A stretch of DNA of 64,000 nucleotides from Chiloscyllium plagiosum (taxonomy: Eukaryota), in the NCBI RefSeq assembly GCF_004010195.1, contig NC_057718.1, forward strand, positions 69,649,213-69,713,212. The letters run 5' to 3'. The notes below the pieces were generated by a model, which searched no databases, was not told the DNA's origin, and saw only the letters and a program-made list of their open reading frames with translations. Each line of letters opens with the position of its first letter. Positions within the stretch are counted from its first letter, which is position 1. Of this stretch, positions 40,220 through 59,529 are shown piece after piece. A program made the position numbers and the translations under genes.

Positions 40220-40573
40220 TCATCCTCTGTGACTGTAACCACGTCCCATCCATACATACTTCAATTTCTCTGTAAAATCCTCTCATTCTTAAAATCCTCC
40301 CTGCCTCTGTCCCTTGTTCCAGTGTCCACAGCATTCCCTATCCCTGTACAACTTCCTCCAGCTACTATAGCCCACCATATCACTAAATTCCACCAATCAC
40401 TATAATATCAGAGAATGGGGTGAAAGCAGGAACAGCATACTGAGTTAGATGATCAGCCATGGTAGGGCAGGCTCGTGTGGCCAAATGGCTGATATTTGCC
40501 CCTCTTTCCTGTGTTTCTCTATAAACTCTATTGCCATAATTTCCTTTAGTCCCCACAACCCTCCCTATCTGTA
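40220..40573 (+). repeat. Degenerate pyrimidine-rich tandem array, left part
   Basis: Repeated variants of ccctatctctgtaac(c/t)tcctccagc...acaaccct; includes a short CR1-type tail at ~40405-40520. Confidence 0.5.
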
Positions 40574-41022
40574 TGAAGGTGTGAAATAAACGGATAAATG
40601 GACAAATGCTAACTATAGAGTGACTTTTAGATTTTGCAAACAACTGCAGAAAAGCTGTTTCTGTTACTGTGCAAAACTGGAGTCTGCAAGCAACTGCAGA
40701 AAGGCTGTTCCAGTTATTGTATAGGCTGTTCCTGTTATTGTGCAAAGTAATCGTGGTGTGCTACCTAACAAACAACACACCTAGCAACAATGGAAACATC
40801 TTGCGACGAACAATGGCCCAGAATGCTCGGCGGTCCTTCCAGAGGAAGGTGAATGTGACACAACATGCAATCAAGTGTATAAAAGACTACTGTAATCTGT
40901 ACCAAACAAGCAGCCTGGTGGAACCACGTTGAGGTGCCTCACTTCTCCCAAAAGCTTCTGGTAAATAAAGCTTAGTCTGATTCACTGCTAAATTCATATT
41001 TTGGTATTATTTTTACCGAACA
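40574..41022 (+). repeat. 5' LTR
   Basis: TG...CA; TATA-like tataaaag at ~40878; aataaa at ~40964; colinear with 44365-44748. Confidence 0.9.
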
Positions 41023-41025
41023 AAT

Positions 41026-41043
41026 TGGTGCTGCGAGCTGGGT
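41026..41043 (+). promoter_or_regulatory. Primer-binding site (degenerate; tRNA-His or tRNA-Phe-like, unresolved)
   Basis: TGGTGC... begins 3 nt after the 5' LTR end. Confidence 0.6.
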
Positions 41044-41839
41044 CCTGTCCACAGGTCCGGACAACATGGCCACAGCGTGAGCACCGGGAGAGGATACCGA
41101 ACAAAGTTAAATGAATTAGACTGCAGTAATTGGTGATCTGTTGAGAGTGAATGTGTGGTGTCTTAGTTGAGTGCAAATGGACAAGGAGATATTTGTTGCT
41201 CGCTCCTAGCCTGAAATGGTTGTTGAGAGGAGTAGCCCCACCATGCAAAGGTCAGGATCCTAAAATAGGAGTGGAGATTGGAAAAAGAACACCAGAGACA
41301 CGAGACTTGGACGCTGTTTGAGATTGTTGCAAGTCCACCTTAGACAAAACTAAGTAAGCGGGATACGGGGACTTGATCACTCCCCATTTCAGTCTCACCA
41401 GATTCTGCTTGGAATGATGCCGAGTTTGAAAACACAAATAAGACGTGGCCAGTGTTTAAACGCGGTTGAGAAATCGGAGGAATCATGAGTATAAACATAT
41501 AATTTATTATGGTGGAACAGGAAGATCAATGGGGACACCCAGGGTCTCTCAGTAATCAATACATGACAGATAGGCATTCACTTATAAAACGGATGAAGGG
41601 GGGCGGGGGGGTGGTGGTGGTGGTGAAGAAATGGGATCCGTCCCAGACGCTAAATAACAGTGAAATTGGGTCTTGAGTGAGAAGAAAGATGGGACCAAGC
41701 AATTTGGGGTCCTTTTGTTGCATCAATTGGCTGGCATTATAGGTCAGACATCAGAACCATCCCTTGTCTGCCACTTTCGCTGAGAATGGCCCCACTGCAA
41801 ACTGATACCCAAAGGCGAGCACACCAGGTAGAAGGCACA

Positions 41840-42900
41840 GGGGGCCATGCCACACGAAAGAAGTCTCTGGATATTGAACAACAAGGTCATGGCCCCCGCA
41901 TGCATCTGATATACTCTTATGCAATTACACCATGGCATCTCCCACGTGGGGTGTGATGCCATGATGACCAGTATTGGAAGGAATTGTAGTGGAAGGGTAT
42001 GGCAGATTTATAGCCTGATTTTGTCACCGCTGTGTGACCCGTGCCCAGCAAAACCCAGACAGGCCCGTTAAAATTAGAATGAGGCACCAGCCATGCCCAA
42101 AGGGCCTGGGGGGCATATATAGATAAATTTTACGGGACCACTCCCTCAATCCCGTGGGAATACTTATTTCCTTGTGATTGTTGACTAATTCACCAGGTGG
42201 GTGGAGGCCTACCCGACTCAGAACTGCTCAGCTAACACTTGCAAAGATTCTAGCTGAGCAAGTGATTCCCAGGTGGAAAGGGTGCTGTTCCAGATTGACT
42301 CTGACCAGGGGACACATTTCACTGGAAGAGCAGTAAAAACCAAATGTCAGCTGATGGGCATTTAAACCAAGATTCCACATACCCTCCCATCCACAAAGTT
42401 CTAGCATGGAGCATATGAACAGGACACTTTAAATCTCCCTTGCTAAGGCCATACAGGACTCTGGCAAGCACTGGATGGATGTCCTGCCTGCAATATTCAT
42501 GCGACTCAAGTCGACCACAAGCCAGTCGACTGGTTTGACCCCTTACGAGTTAATGGTGGGCAGGACAATGCAACCGTCTAATTCCATCATCATGGAGGGA
42601 TCTGATGTTGGCCGTCTCTGCGATAGAATGCATTGCTTCTTGCTCGAGCTACGCGCCGAGCTGAAGGAGATGCGCAAAACATTCAGGGACAAACAGGATG
42701 AACAGAGGCAATCAGAGGATTGTCCCCAGGTCCCATCGGCAGATGGTAAAGTTATGATCAAGACTCGATCCGGTAAAACTGGGTTTGTCCCTAAGTGGAA
42801 TGTCCCTACGAGGTTATCATTAGCGATGACACGTGCACTTGTATTGACATGCTCAGGAAGGGGGTCTGGAAACTCTGGTCCCAACCTAAGGAATATTTGG
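41840..42900 (+). pseudogene. Retroviral integrase pseudogene (gamma/epsilon-like)
   Basis: Frameshifted translation: LHHGISHVG...CHRCVT (HHCC), INFTGPLP..YFLVIVD*FTRWVEAYPT, IDSDQGTHFTG, HPQSS..E.MNRTL, TGLTPYELMVGR. Confidence 0.85.
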
Positions 42901-43095
42901 GCACAGACTGAGGATCCTCACCCTCTGCTTTCTTTTCAGATTGATCTCTCTTGGAGCCTGCTGACATCCTTTGCGTATGCGCAGGTTGTTGTACGTGGAC
43001 CAGGAGCACGGGAAGTTACATGCGGGCAGTATAGCCTTTGGAACATTGTTAACACAGAATGATGAGATAACAGTTTTCTCTACTTGAGTTTAAAC

Positions 43096-44267
43096 ATGTT
43101 TACGATGCCGTATGTGGTCGCGGTGTTCTGTATTGTCATGGTTGCAGGGGTGTCAGGATTAGAGGATAACTTGTTTTACAAGACCCACATACATGGTAAT
43201 CGGACCATGTGCTACCCTCTTGCCCAATCAGTTGAGGCATCGTTCACAGCCACCCTTGCGTGGAACTCCTTTGACCTATACACAGCGGACAGTTTAGACG
43301 CAGGCTGTGTGGACTGAACCAGTAAATACTGTCAAGGTGTATAAGGGAGATGTGTAGAGCTAACAAACTGAAATAGAATACAGTCCCCCAACTGTACAGG
43401 AACTCGGGGAAAGAACAGCACAACATGTTCAAACCCACTAAGTTACCTGCTTTGTTTCTTAGGACAGGGATGGGGGTGCGCATATACTCAAGTCCCGAAG
43501 AACCCCTATTGTGTGCATACACAATGCTCTTGCCAGCATTGCCAAGTGAACAATGGCCTTTTTACATGCACCTGTAAAGAGCAAAGATGCCTAAACATAA
43601 CTGCGTGTTGACAGTTTGTTTGTGGACAATGCAACGGCACAAGTTAGTTCAGCCATTTGGACGTATCCATTTGATACCTGCCAGCTGGTAAGGTCAGGTG
43701 GGACCTCCAGCCAGAAAGATAGTGACCTGAGCCATTAGCAAAGAATTCTGTGCAGACTGGAAGGACCCTGTAACACTGGGATCCTCACGTGGCTATGGGT
43801 TCCTCGGAGCCCTGTCCCTGGGGAAGAGCGGCGGGAGTAATTAGTGCCAAGAATAGGAACTATGTTGTCTGTGGCCTGACCATCCAGGGAAATAGGACAG
43901 TAAAAGGGTTGGATGCCATAAATGAAGAGCTTGCTAAGTCAAGACTCTATGCGCAGCAAACCCACTGTGCCATCGATTACCAGTTAGCCCAGCAGGGTGG
44001 AGTGTGCACTGCTGTAAGGGACAAGTGTATAACACATTACAGATTATTCCTGTAACGTCACCCAAACCTTTAAAGATATAAGATGACTTCAGGCAAGGCT
44101 TCAGGAAAGGGTTTGGTTGGCTCAAACTGGTACTAGGTGGTTTTTGGAGCTTGTACCTTTTATACACTTTGATGTACTTATTATGATTGTTATCACCTGC
44201 TGCATTGTATTGGCTGTTTTTAATTCCATAATAACTGCGCTATTATGCCAGATGCTTCTATGTTGAA
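43096..44267 (+). pseudogene. Retroviral env pseudogene (short SU; TM with heptad repeat, ISD-like segment, CX6C and membrane anchor)
   Basis: Signal-like MFTMPYVVAVFCIVMVAGVSG; ORF 43789-44055 KNRNYVVCGLTIQGNRTVKGLDAINEELAKSRLYAQQTHCAIDYQLAQQGGVCTAVRDKC; hydrophobic stretch at ~44150-44225; splice acceptor ctttcttttcag ending at 42939. Confidence 0.8.
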
Positions 44268-44364
44268 TCACTTGGGAGCCACCCCTTAGTGGTCCTACTG
44301 ATGACCACTGGACGTAACTGGTCTCACCGACATGTTCACATACATCTTGGACCACGGGGAGATC

Positions 44365-44748
44365 TGAAGGTGTGCAATTAAAGGGTTAAATGGAGAAATG
44401 CTGTGCTAACTGTAGAGTGACTTTTAGATTTTGCAAACGACTGCAGAAAGGCTGTTTCTGTTATTGTGCAAAGTAATCGTGGTGTGCTACCTCACAAAAC
44501 AATTTACCCAGCAACAACAGAAACATCTTGCAACGGCCAATGGTCCGCAATGCTCTGTGGTCCTTCCAGAGGAAGGTGACTGTGTCACAATATGCAATCA
44601 AGGATATAAAAGACTACTGTAATCTGCATTAAACGAGAAGCCTGGTTGAACCATGTTTAGGCAACTCATTTCTCCCCAGAGCTTGTTAAATAAAGCTTAG
44701 TCTGATTCCCTGCTAAATTCATATTTTGGTATTTTTAAAATTACAACA
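44365..44748 (+). repeat. 3' LTR
   Basis: Follows the PPT; colinear with the 5' LTR; contains tataaaag and aataaa. Confidence 0.9.
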
Positions 44749-45990
44749 TGTGTAACCTACTCAAGCTCTGACAGTGCTCCCTGTCACAGTAACCTCTGCG
44801 TTCAAATCAGAGGGCACTCCATATACGCCAAACCTACTCCAATACCTCTAACCCTCCTGACCTTTGTAACTTCCTTCAGTATCTAAAGCTCCTCCAATTG
44901 CTACGTCTGTCCCTGTCTTTGTAACATCATCCTGCACCTCGAGTCCTCCTGATTGCTGAAACCTCTTCAGGCACTCTCTCTATTTCTATTACTTTCTCCT
45001 CCTCTTAGAAACCTGCGTATCTGCATGATCCCCTACAAACCCCCCCAACTCTAACCTCTACTAGCCTCGATAACCCTCCCTACATCTGTAATCTCTTCTA
45101 ATCCCTTCAGCACCTTCTATAACTGCAAACTCCCATATCCATCCTCATTTGCGAAATGTATCCTAGTTTTTACAATGTCAGAATTTGAAGCCCACTCTCG
45201 CTCTAATCTCCAAACTTCTTCAGCCGCCACAACCATCCATATCTCTTTTAGCTCCTTCAATCCCTTTAAGCTTTCCATTCTTGCATAAATTAACACCTTA
45301 AACACTTTTCAGTGTATCTTACTACAGTCCCTAAAACCTTTCCTCTCTGTAAACTGCTCCAACCCCCATCCACTATCACCATAAATTCCTGCAGCCCCTA
45401 AACCCCTTTTTGTGTAATTTCTTCCAGTCCTGACAAAACACCCTATAATCTTCCCTAGTTGGGTAATACCCTCAAGTTCCTGCAGAATTCCTGATTGGCA
45501 GCATCTGGTGCAAACCATGTGACTCTCCAGTACCTATGAGACTCACTTTCAACGTCAGCTCATCTAGTCTCTACATCCGTCTACTTATCTCCATATCTTT
45601 CTCCAGCTCTTACAACCTTGTCTACGTAAACTTCGCCCTTCCCTACAATCCTGTCTGCCTTAGGAACCTCTTCCAGCCATACAATGCTCCCTATCTGTGC
45701 AACTGTGTCCTGAAAACCTGCCAGACTCCACAACCTTCCTATCTGTGTAACTTCCTGAAGTTACGAGCCTTCTTATATCTGTAAACTTCTTCAGTCACTA
45801 GAACCCTCCATATCTCTTTCACTACATACAATACTCTTTTCCCAAAAACACCCCTGTCTTTTTCCGTCGCTGGCTGACTCTGTACCTCTCTCTTGCTCCC
45901 TACACCCATCCCTATTGCGGGAATCTAATCCAACCCCCTCTATCTCTAACTTCCTCAAATCTCTATAGTCCTTTCACCCACTAACATTTG
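44749..45990 (+). repeat. Degenerate pyrimidine-rich tandem array (units of roughly 35-40 bp), right part
   Basis: Many variants of ...ctccctatctgtgtaac(c/t)tc(c/t)tccagcc..acaaccc..., strongly C/T-skewed on +. Confidence 0.65.
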
Positions 45991-55144: not shown

Positions 55145-55500
55145 TGCTTATGGGAAGCCCAAGAGGAACCCATGGGGACCTGGGATAGTTTGACCTATTC
55201 CCCCCTGAAAGATTAGGTATGAACACCCTGGGAGAGGAGGTGGGGAGGTATCTGCAGAGGCTAACCAAAACTCTCTAAAGTTTGCATTTGCAGGTGCACA
55301 AAGCTTATAGAGTGCAATGATCCACCTAAAGGGGACCATCACACTGCCGAGCCTGGAGATTTTGTCCTGATAAAAAAACTGGGAACGAAAGAACTGGAAC
55401 CAAGGTGGAAAGGACCATTTCAGGTGCTGCTGACCAACCCCATGGCTGAGAAAGTGCAAGGTCAATCCTGGTGGATTCAACTGCCAAAGAGTCAGCGAGT
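55145..55500 (+). pseudogene. Gammaretrovirus-like integrase C-terminal fragment
   Basis: Frameshifted EPGDFVLIK..WERK.LEPRWKGPFQVLLTNPMAEKVQGQSWWI (GPY/F-type C-terminal module). Confidence 0.75.
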
Positions 55501-55504
55501 AAAT

Positions 55505-56760
55505 AGATGACAATTAGAGACAAAGATGTATTCCATACTTGTGACTTGGTGGGGGGGTTAATGTGACTTTGGGGGAAGAGACGGTTTTCAGACTAATACC
55601 TCTATGCATCATATCTTTTTGCATTTGGCCTACCAGAAGGCCCATGTGACAGGGAGAGACACCCGCTGCTGGGTATGTGCCTACATGCCACTCCACTCCA
55701 CTCAAGGAGGGTATTCCTTTGTGGCTTGTATCTTTTCGCTATCAAAAGGTAGCCAAATGGTTACTGTGCTGGAGCCTTTCTTGTGATCCTGCTAACACCG
55801 ATGATGCACGGGAATGGCAGTCAGCAGGGTATAACATGATCTTATTCAGGGATTAGTACCAACCTAATTACAACAGGTCACATAGACCTCCCTTCCTTGT
55901 CATTCGCAACAACACCAATGACACCATTTGTTTCAGGTGGGAAGGGAAATCCTCTCAAGTAAGTGCTCCTTTGGTGTCCCCTGGGTCGAGCCTATTCAGA
56001 ATTTAACAGAATATGGCTACTTTGTATTTGACTGGTCTGCCGTCCAACTAAGCCTTCAGGCTCCCTCTGGAATAACCCTGTTCCCAGATTGTGGGGTGGT
56101 GCAGTTTCCAACTTAACATCTTACAATGGCACATATTTTATTTGCAGGCTAAAAGCCTATCCGTGGATTCAAACCAATAGGAGGGGCTCATGTTACATGG
56201 GTATGTAGTACGAACATATTTGGGTTTTGGATAATTTACCTTCACCCCCAAGACCCAGAAGGTCCCTCACCGGGTTCCTCACCTGGGTTGGAATGTTTTC
56301 CCCTCCCACAGGAATTTATTTACATGCCCAAGAACTTAGTAAGCTCAGGACAGTATGGGAAAGGGTCGCCAATGATACTGCCAATGCCTTAACTGCAATT
56401 AACACTGAACCACTCGCAGTTAGGACTGTGGCCCTCCAGAATCGTTTGATCTTGGATTTCCTACTGGCCAAGGAGGGTGGAACTTGTGCTATCACAGGGG
56501 AGGAGTGCTGTAACTACATCCCTAACGAATCCACTAATATCACCGATCTTTCTAAGCGCATCACATAGGAAACCCAAACCCTCCGCACTATTGACTATGG
56601 GCTTAGCAGTGGCACGGGATGATGGCCATTGGGAGCCTCCTTGGACAAATGGGAACCAACTGTTACAATCCGAGATTACCATACCAATTGTATTCACCTG
56701 CATTCTTGTGCTCCGGTGCTCATGGCCACTGTTCTCCGATTGTTGTCGTTATAGGCTCTG
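55505..56760 (+). pseudogene. Gamma-type env pseudogene (second ERV; no LTR identified)
   Basis: SU CWVC motif at ~55667, furin site RPRR at 56251-56262, N-terminal fusion peptide SLTGFLTWVGMF, ISD LQNRLILDFLLAKEGGTC, CX6CC (CAITGEECC), downstream hydrophobic anchor. Confidence 0.85.
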
Positions 56761-57539
56761 AGGGGACCTGATTGATCATCGAATGTTTGAGAACCACAAA
56801 GTAAAAAACTTGCTTATCATGCTGTATTGGGAATTCAAGGCTTAAAAATCCCCTATTAAAGTGACTCACTTACAGATTCGATCGCGTGCCTGTCCTCTGA
56901 CTGGCTGAGATTGAAAATTGAGATTGAGATTGAAAATCACAGCCGGGGTCTGGCTATCTCCAAACTGACAAAATGGTTTGGAGCCATACATGTGGATTTT
57001 ACTTTCAGCTGCAGGCAAAGGAGCTTGTTTTCCCTGGATAAGACTGCTAGCCTTGGTTATAGATCTTATTAACTGCTATGCCTATACTTGTTCCTATTAA
57101 CATACTTCCTTACCTATTAACAAGGGTATGTGAAGACCAATAACAGGAACAAAACAAAAATCCCTTTACCCATTAACATACGATTGTGAATTATACAATA
57201 ACCAGCTCTGTAAACAATTTGATATTTGTCACAGGAAGTTAGCAATTACTGAGCATTGTAAGATTGCAAAATACCTGTCTTAAACAGCATAATAGCAATC
57301 AGTCATGTTACTTTAGGACTTCTGTATTAGTCACACCCAAAAAAGATATAAAACATACTGCTTGCATGCAAAGTTCAGAGATTCATTGTGAGGTACCACG
57401 TAGGCATGACTACTTTCAGTGTCACCAAGAATCTCGCACTGGCTGACCAAAAATAAAGTATCTAGCTTTGACCTGAATCTTGTGTCGGCCTGATTTAAGA
57501 ATGAAATCTTGCACACGGGGACCTCATCCATGACTAACA

Positions 57540-59190
57540 AATGATGTAAAAATATCAGCCAGGGTCCCCACAATTTCTTCTCTAGCTTCTTTCAGTGTTC
57601 TTGGATATACCTGGTCAGGATCAGGAGATTTATCCACCTTCATACGTCCAACATCTCCTCTACTGTGATATGGACCATCTCTAAGATATCACCACTAACT
57701 GTCCCAAGTTCTCATGTCTTCATGTTTTGCTCCAGGGTAAACAGAGAGGATAAATATTCATTGAGGACCTCACCAATTTCCTGCAGTTCCACACATATAT
57801 GTCCACTTTGTCCTTGAGGGGTCCTATTCTCTCTCCAGCTATTCTTTTTCCTTTAATACACTTACAGAATCTCTTTGGATCCTCCCTAATTTTCTTAGCC
57901 AAGGCTCTCTCGTGTCCCCTTTTCACCTTCTTGATTTCCAGTAAACTCTTGAAAGTCCTGGACACCTCCAGGGATTCCCTTGATCCCAGTTGCCTGTACA
58001 TGAACCATGCCGCCTTTTTTCTGGTCAGAGCCTCAATATCTCTGGTCATCCAGAGTTCCATGTTCCTGCCAACCTTGCCCTTCATCCTCACAGGAACAAA
58101 GAGATCTTGAACTCTAGCTTTATCAGTTTTAGAGGGCTCCAACTTGCCAAAGGTCCCTCTGCCTGCAAACACACTACTCTAACCAACTCCTGCGATCTCC
58201 TGTCTAATTCCATCAACGTTCACCTTGCCTCAGTTTGGAACTTGAACCTGTGGGCCAGTTTTGTCCCTCTCCATAACTATTTCAAAATTAATAAAACAAT
58301 GATCACTGGCCCCAAAGTGCTGCCCACTGTCATCTTGTTCACCTGTCCTGCTCTATTTCCCAAGAGTAAGTCGGGTTTTACCCTTTCCCGAGGAGGACCC
58401 TCTATGCGCTTGAGGAAACATTCCTGAAACACTTAACAAATTCTACCCCATCTAAGCCTTTAACACCCTGGCAGTCCCAGTTTATATTAGAAAAATTAAA
58501 ATCTCCTACTATGATAATCTTATTGCTCCTGCAAGTCTCCCTACATATTTGTTCCTCTAATTGTTGACGACTATTGGGGGCCTATAGTATTACCCCAATA
58601 ACATCATCCCCTTATTTCTTAGCTTTACCCACAAAGCCTCACTGGATGATCCTCCAGTTATTTCATCTGATTACTGCTGTGATACTCACCTTAATTCAAA
58701 ATGCAACTCCGCCTTCCCTCCTTCCACAACCTCTGTCCCACCCAAAGCACCTAAACCCTGGAACATTAAGCTTCCACTCCTGTCCTTCCCTTAACCATGT
58801 TTCTGTAATGGCTAAAATATCCCAGTTCCACGTACCTGTCACTCCCTGTCGTGTTCGAGCCAGACCTGTCTCTTCAACTTACAATTTCTGATTACTATAT
58901 CTCCTTCCAGCCTTGCACCTGCTGTTGAAGATCATACTGCCCTGCCAATCTAGTTTAAACCCTTTGTAGCACTAGCAATCCTGGCCACCAAGATATTTGT
59001 CTCCCTCCAATTCTGATGCAACCCATCCCTCTCGAATAGGTCACTTCTGCCCCAGAAAACATTGCAATAGTCTAGAAATCAGAATCCCTGCCCCCTGCAG
59101 CAATTCTTTAACCACGCATTCATCTGCCAAATTTTCCTGTTCTTACCTTCACCAGCATATGCCACTGGAAGTGTTCTGGAGATTACCACT
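57540..59190 (-). mobile_element. CR1 LINE (ORF1 end, endonuclease, tether)
   Basis: Minus ORF 57720-58172 KIREDPKRFCKCIKGKR..ERIGPLKD; GDFN..INWD region. Confidence 0.8.
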
Positions 59191-59529
59191 AAGTACGAGT
59201 ACTTAGCCTGGATTTCAAAATCAAAGATCCCGCTTGACCAATGTGTGTGTTACTGTTTCAAAGACTTCAGAATAGTTAAGAATACTGTAATAATGCAACT
59301 CATCTAACTTTCAAAATGGCTTTTAATAAGTCATTAAAACAAAATTGTTACAGAATAGATGGACGCCTGTCATTTACCCTCCAGCTCTCTACATGAGCAA
59401 TTTGTTTAGCACCACTTGTTTTCTAACACAATCCTGCACATTTTAATTTTTTATATAATTCAATTCCCTCTTTCTTTATGAGGAAGTGAAAAGATGATTA
59501 ATGATGACAGGATGGTAAACATTTAGCAA

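Follow-up and report, generated by a model that had tools for sequence, protein, structure and literature searches.

A decayed env of a shark provirus points to a shark-and-skate Env family, probably sister to filovirus GP2, with a likely disulfide-clamped internal fusion loop

Introduction

The filovirus GP is thought to be derived from a retroviral env, and the published case is based on a short HR/ISD ectodomain. An env remnant in the genome of Chiloscyllium plagiosum (contig NC_057718.1, positions 69,649,213 to 69,713,212; this stretch of 64,000 nucleotides is referred to as the window) raises the question of what kind of fusion protein it once encoded. An earlier note, made from the letters alone, described the remnant (43710-44050) as coding for a fusion peptide enclosed by two Cys residues, a layout that was compared with those of ASLV Env and Ebola GP2 and set apart from that of ordinary gamma-type Env. 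Here we ask whether the Cys pair belongs to an Env family or only to this decayed copy, which known glycoproteins the family resembles, and how much of it has already been described.

Results

State of the Provirus and Its env

The env is part of an LTR-flanked element of 4175 bp, the internal region of which is only about 3.3 kb long. The features recognized in the window are listed with their coordinates and strand.

40574..41022, +, 5′ LTR (TG...CA), aligned to the 3′ LTR
41026..41043, +, PBS-like sequence starting TGG, just past the 5′ LTR (position seen directly)
41044..41990, +, deleted, degenerate leader/gag-pol remnant
41991..42900, +, broken integrase, core and C-terminal part (PF00665 rve; C-terminal extent from translation)
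43096..43714, +, env signal-peptide region and Cys-rich SU (75% identity to residues 1-183 of whale shark P0011)
43315, 43342, 43369 and 43609, +, stops in SU; the frame also shifts near 43640, and some 58 codons are missing near 43695-43714
43710..43748, +, putative SU/TM cleavage region, with the stop at 43728 within it (aligned to the relatives' basic stretch)
43749..43751, +, first loop Cys, TGT codon (in 22/23 records spanning both sites)
43794..43820, +, Gly-rich hydrophobic peptide YGFLGALSL, the likely fusion peptide (hydropathy peak of the loop)
43821..43826, +, frame break within the loop (translation; also in the X1 contig with 0 gaps)
43870..43899, +, second loop Cys, CGL and N-R-T sequon (43891-43899), aligned to the filovirus GP2 Cys and N-x-T
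43900..44037, +, heptad repeat 1 (HR1), ISD-like segment and CX6C (Cys 44005 and 44026, then Ile) (PF22307; PDB matches)
44038..44260, +, HR2, membrane-proximal region and membrane-spanning helix (tblastn of P0004 and P0005)
44365..44748, +, 3′ LTR (TG...CA), with a purine-rich tract before it
55300-56700, +, second, unrelated ERV remnant: integrase C-terminus with a GPF-type motif, and gamma-type env

The two LTRs differed at 45 of 374 aligned bases (K2P 0.13), and the flanking sequences, TCTGTA and TGTGTA, formed a target-site duplication matching at five of six positions. The 5′ LTR included an internal duplication of about 70 bp (window 40676-40721) that was not found in the 3′ LTR. No gag or RT domain was detected (0 Pfam families in 3/3 plus frames of 41100-42001), and the integrase was recognized by a PF00665 rve match in 41991-42410 (E = 1.7e-9), with foamy-virus integrases as its best PDB matches. 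Contigs of two other organisms, B and C, ran from the 3′ LTR into the same host flank at about 95% identity (X13, 43760-45131; X18, 44162-45300), and the 5′ junction was crossed by X9. The same-site contigs in two other organisms indicated that the insertion is older than the split of the three species. A contig from run X5 joined the flanks across 40564-44767 with 15 other letters and represents either an empty site or a paralogous repeat copy.

Three-frame translation of the env read RKIVT*AISKEFCADWKDPVTLGSSRGYGFLGALSL in one frame, with the stop at 43728 and a Cys codon at 43749 (in outline, RKIVT*AISKEFC...YGFLGALSL), and RAAGVISAKNRNYVVCGLTIQGNRT...GGVCTAVRDKCITH in the next frame, with a Cys codon at 43870. 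When an X was placed at both breaks, the Cys were residues 20 and 60, i.e., 40 residues apart, and N-R-T began 7 residues past the second one. The earlier note had given both Cys positions, a single frame break near 43821, and a hydrophobic peptide between the Cys followed by CGL and N-R-T, all of which the translation reproduced. The frame break near 43821-43826 is real, because a public contig from run X1 spanning 43148-44487 was identical and ungapped (0 differences, 0 gaps). An assembly artefact was ruled out as its source by this contig, which may come from the window's own sample. The hydrophobicity of the loop peptide is only moderate, with Kyte-Doolittle 11-residue peaks of 1.3 in the window copy and 1.5 in the relatives; its G and L columns were at least 90% conserved. 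The TM carries CX6C with Ile in the next position, in place of CX6CC. Outside 43710-44050 the env is broken many more times: stops and frame changes number five or more each, and about 58 codons have been lost immediately upstream of the cleavage region. The segment at 44038..44260 is split into three frame pieces with a stop at 44084. In one RNA run a single read was placed, outside env. This copy cannot encode a working protein; it is a dead fossil shared between species, of value only as a pointer to its Env family.

Members and Conservation of the Env Family

Protein searches identified relatives, those from one search having 64-74% identity to the window's piece. A total of 28 family records were scored, the named hosts being Pristiophorus (sawshark), Rhincodon (whale shark), Heterodontus (horn shark) and Leucoraja (little skate). 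Both Cys positions are spanned by 23 of them, and the sequon and the third Cys were scored in 24. Word-indexed searches returned 6/151, 16/3988 and 1/8000 candidates, all of them in-family. The records are not independent, with 18 distinct TM sequences among 22 tree rows, and the window copy fell among the shark-type records in an in-family tree that had no outgroup. A Pol-bearing relative was found neither in the metagenome scan (153 stretches) nor in the viral scan (0/18); the one match of the former (1/153 stretches) was short and unrelated-looking, with 36% identity over 61 residues.

At the Cys-codon frequency of the window, a Cys is expected by chance in about 28% of 9-codon stretches, and one copy taken alone is weak evidence. 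Conservation ruled out a chance pair, as 21 of the 23 records kept both Cys (P0014 is without the second and P0016 without the first). The spacing was 40 residues, or 44 in skate, and the Cys-flanked peptide of these 21 records is internal, a few residues past the putative cleavage site, as in avian gamma-type Env. An N-x-T sequon was present in 23/24 records and, also as in avian gamma-type Env, it is located at the start of HR1. The Gly-rich peptide, the HR1, ISD-like and CX6C segments and the membrane helix were conserved across the family. The third Cys of CX6CC was found in 0/24 records, skate included, and I, V or M occupies its position. Because the Cys pair and the sequon are kept across sawshark, whale shark, horn shark and little skate, this layout is a family trait.

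Three full-length 561-aa copies of Leucoraja erinacea (P0029-P0031), 99% identical, are located at different loci, one on a 57-Mb chromosome and the others on scaffolds of 120 kb and 23 kb. Their near identity suggests a recent spread in skate. An extra basic stretch, RNKRGKR, is present in these copies directly past the signal peptide. Record P0025 (XP_048473945.1, Rhincodon typus) is an NCBI model named "erythropoietin receptor isoform X1". Its first 402 residues are the ectodomain of this Env family (92% to P0009), and a membrane and cytoplasmic portion resembling a receptor follows; the model could reflect an error of gene prediction or a true chimera made by splicing. The Heterodontus francisci records P0015 and P0026-P0028 are annotated as "syncytin-1-like" or "ERV group FC1 Env-like", names that are misleading for the clade.

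Nearest Known Proteins

When the window's piece was used alone, filovirus GP2 came first among the PDB matches (best E 4.5e-5), and the family profiles reached 65-78 bits against the best filovirus-type chain. The top 39 PDB rows were filovirus-type GP chains, by name or by alignment. Among comparable post-fusion cores the scores were 53.1 bits for Ebola (2ebo), 52.3 for 4g2k (which we take to be Marburg), 41.6 for 4n21 (presumably CAS virus), 27.3 for syncytin-1, 23.4 for syncytin-2, 18.9 for ASLV, 14.2 for MoMLV and 13.4 for HTLV-1. Nearness of the TM core to filovirus GP2 refers here to profile and best-match scores and not to a phylogeny. ASLV was ruled out as the closest kin by its 18.9 bits versus the 52-53 of filovirus GP2. 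The Pfam family PF22307 (Ebola-like HR1-HR2) was matched with E = 0.009, below the curated cut-off. In a feature search of the ESM Atlas, TLV_coat clusters that had a minority share of Avian_gp85 scored 0.96, ahead of filovirus GP at 0.90.

Similarity to filovirus GP sets in only some 7 residues ahead of the second Cys; it did not extend over the loop, the first Cys or the SU, full-length chains included. The loop resembles the filovirus loop by its layout and not by its sequence. In the alignments with the GP2 of Ebola, Sudan and Marburg/Ravn viruses, Cys-G/R-L, the N-x-T sequon, HR1, the A[IV]D[FY] segment, GG-x-C-X6-C and the N-I-T of HR2 correspond, and the peptide is internal and Cys-bounded in both groups. 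The spacing of 40-44 residues is near the 45 of Ebola GP2, whose loop Cys we take to be C511 and C556. Unlike filovirus GP2, the shark and skate proteins have no third Cys, and hence no equivalent of the GP1-GP2 bond at that place, and the shark members have no furin site. AlphaFold models of a full-length relative and of a TM-centred relative had mean pLDDT values of 35.9 and 41.7 and did not support the disulfide; Foldseek searches with these low-pLDDT models gave 0 matches at E 0.001. We infer the loop disulfide from the conservation of the Cys and from the alignment of the second one to GP2. The ASLV/Ebola-type layout proposed in the earlier note was found in part: the conserved Cys pair, internal peptide, sequon, heptad repeat and ISD-like region are there, while the third Cys is missing and RXXR is confined to skate. 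By score, the core is far closer to filovirus GP2 than to ASLV.

The second ERV remnant of the window, 12 kb away, served as a contrast. Its env (55900-56700) matched TLV_coat (E = 1.5e-8) and has an RPRR furin site, an N-terminal peptide without Cys, and CX6CC. The two env sequences share 36% identity over 47 residues, and BLAST of 56601-59500 against the window found no LTR copy for the second ERV. The first env does not have the features of the second, which ruled out ordinary gamma-type Env as its identity, in agreement with what had been claimed before.

Cleavage Site and Link between SU and TM

A furin-type RXXR site, an ASLV-like hallmark, was absent from the shark records. It was found in 3/22 records, all from skate, as RVRR at positions -11 to -8 from the first Cys, and the basic stretch of the window copy lies at the same distance. 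In this register the remaining 19 records read [RK]-[IK]-V-[TA], with R first in 16 of them; K instead of R occupies the S1P P4 position in the window copy and in two whale shark records. The SKI-1/S1P motif is given as R-X-aliphatic-Z (PMC8310232), and the R-x-V-[TA] of 16/19 non-skate records fits this short motif. A predicted S1P site in the reptarenavirus GPC provides a precedent (PMC6261641). Another convertase motif consists of a wider-spaced basic pair, (K/R)-Xn-(K/R), and furin cleavage of Ebola GP has been reported as dispensable (PMC8310232). Judged by these motifs, cleavage of the shark proteins by SKI-1/S1P, or by a basic convertase of a non-canonical kind, would be more likely than cleavage at a canonical furin site. 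Cleavage via the wider-spaced basic pair, or none at all, is possible.

In gamma-type Envs SU is tethered through the third Cys (PMC9967133), and the absence of this Cys suggests a non-covalent association of SU and TM. The number of SU Cys was odd in 5/8 full-length records, a count with which another Cys tether is possible. In skate and P0012 the numbers were even (14, 16) and both TM Cys are still present. A CG-x-C motif was found in the SU of 6/8 full-length records, the exceptions being skate and P0012.

Discussion

The reading that we favor, with a probability of about 0.7, is that the remnant is what decay has left of the env of a deleted shark provirus and a member of a shark-and-skate Env family, probably the published sister group of filovirus GP2, with a likely disulfide-clamped internal fusion loop. 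By analogy with GP2/ASLV-type class I fusogens, as portrayed in PMC3758190, PMC9967133 and 10.1101/2023.10.07.561363, the precursor would be cut 7-8 residues upstream of the first Cys, and a bond between the two TM Cys would keep the peptide in a hairpin loop. Once triggered, the protein would form a trimeric coiled coil from HR1, pushing the loop into the target membrane, and would then fold HR2 back into a six-helix bundle, as in GP2 and ASLV TM. SU and TM would likely be joined non-covalently or via another Cys, not through CX6CC.

Much of this family is probably on record. Nino Barreat and Katzourakis (2024) found cartilaginous-fish ectodomains to be sister to the GP of ebola-, cueva-, marburg- and dianloviruses (PMC11521997, Figure 6, posterior 0.83). 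Their table includes 14 chondrichthyan loci with filovirus GP as best matches, four in Rhincodon and two in Leucoraja, the latter two with equal E-values, one chromosomal and one on a scaffold (PMC11521997). The host group, with whale shark and little skate in both sets, the position of the env in an LTR-flanked element and filovirus GP as the best viral match are shared with the family described here. The compatibility of our Leucoraja copies, and of a Rhincodon record on a 20.86-Mb contig, with rows of that table is circumstantial. The lineage was probably already described in 2024 and so is probably not new; together with a report on anurans (10.1101/2024.07.05.601823), this weakens the earlier note's suggestion of a poorly described env lineage. 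The accessible text of PMC11521997 covers the HR/ISD ectodomain and does not mention the Cys-bounded loop, the CX6C or the cleavage site, and no description of these three in the shark/skate family was found in the literature searched, outside which most subscription journals lie. The absent SU-TM tether Cys and the non-furin cut site may be what is new relative to the published lineage.

Cys-flanked fusion peptides were reported in anurans, with an epsilon-like Pol, and in caecilians and Mabuya (10.1101/2024.07.05.601823), as well as in bats (PMC13568524). In the work of Chen et al. a CXnC subtype is included and "Alpha_FP" is scored lineage by lineage (10.1101/2021.11.23.469661), a scoring that may already cover the anatomy of the family. 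The chondrichthyan syncytin-like Envs of Proudley et al. share with it the host group and an ERV env with ISD and membrane helix (10.64898/2026.05.06.723177). Those candidates were filtered for RXXR and all have CX6CC, so the shark members of the family would drop out of that set.

A bolder proposal is tentative and, on balance, doubtful: that the tetherless, clamped-loop shark/skate Env is the closest retroviral kin of Ebola/Marburg GP2, that in sharks SKI-1/S1P took over from furin at an unchanged position, and that such a non-covalent, S1P-processed retroviral fusogen is undescribed. If it is true, the filovirus capture included the loop and came from a sister lineage still with CX6CC.

The family could instead be a cartilaginous-fish branch of avian gamma-type (alpharetroviral) Env that lost the third Cys later, with the Envs of toads, caecilians, Mabuya and bats as parallels, which we regard as improbable. 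Its layout equals the definition of that type, in which the peptide lies about 9 residues inside and is Cys-flanked and a glycan is found at the start of HR1 (PMC3758190). The internal Cys-flanked peptide and the HR1 glycan are shared with ASLV, anuran AnERV3/6, caecilian, Mabuya and bat alpha-like Envs, and Avian_gp85 occurs in 15-27% of the members of the Atlas feature neighbours. However, sequence scores are much lower, with 11.6-18.9 bits for ASLV TM versus 42-53 for the Ebola core, and P0005, P0009 and P0012 had no Avian_gp85 Pfam match. The CX6CC of avian gamma-type Env is replaced by CX6C, being missing in 24/24 records. Avian gamma-type Env is defined as having no CXXC in SU; a CxxC is present in most shark SUs (6/8 full-length records), though not in skate and P0012. 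Reptarenavirus GP2 formed the second-best score group (41.6 bits for 4n21, presumably of CAS virus). It has the Cys-flanked peptide and HR1 glycan (PMC3758190) and a predicted S1P cleavage (PMC6261641), but it differs by its CX6CC and by its location, with tarsier ERVs, on another branch of the 2024 tree (PMC11521997).

We give equally little credence to the idea that the Cys pair is real and clamps no loop, one or both residues bonding SU Cys as a tether next to a near-terminal fusion peptide. An odd SU Cys count, as in 5/8 full-length records, could leave a free partner for such a bond, and the loop has no sequence similarity to filovirus loops. Against it, skate and P0012 keep both TM Cys with even SU counts, the second Cys coincides in the alignments with the Cys that closes the GP2 loop, and the two Cys are spaced at near the 45 residues of Ebola. 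Least probable is a placement outside the 2024 filovirus-sister clade, either as a separate env lineage not yet described or within Env-C.2 of Chen et al., the clade that contains percomORF: Chen et al. place cartilaginous-fish Envs with percomORF in C.2 and report three novel fusion peptides besides the CXnC subtype (10.1101/2021.11.23.469661), and Percom-env is described as having no definite TM Cys motif (PMC12813294), whereas the host genera and the filovirus best matches agree with the 2024 table (PMC11521997) and both placements may concern the same sequences.

It was stated as a rule that ISD and CX6CC always occur together in gamma-type Envs (PMC9967133); the sharks and skate, which lack the third Cys, depart from this rule, although a CXnC subtype was already listed by Chen et al. 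Full-length ORFs of the family are annotated in little skate (XP_055521933.1, 561 aa) and whale shark (XP_048454915.1, 463 aa), and they permit a direct structural test of how far the capture of GP extended: to the loop, and perhaps to the GP1 core.
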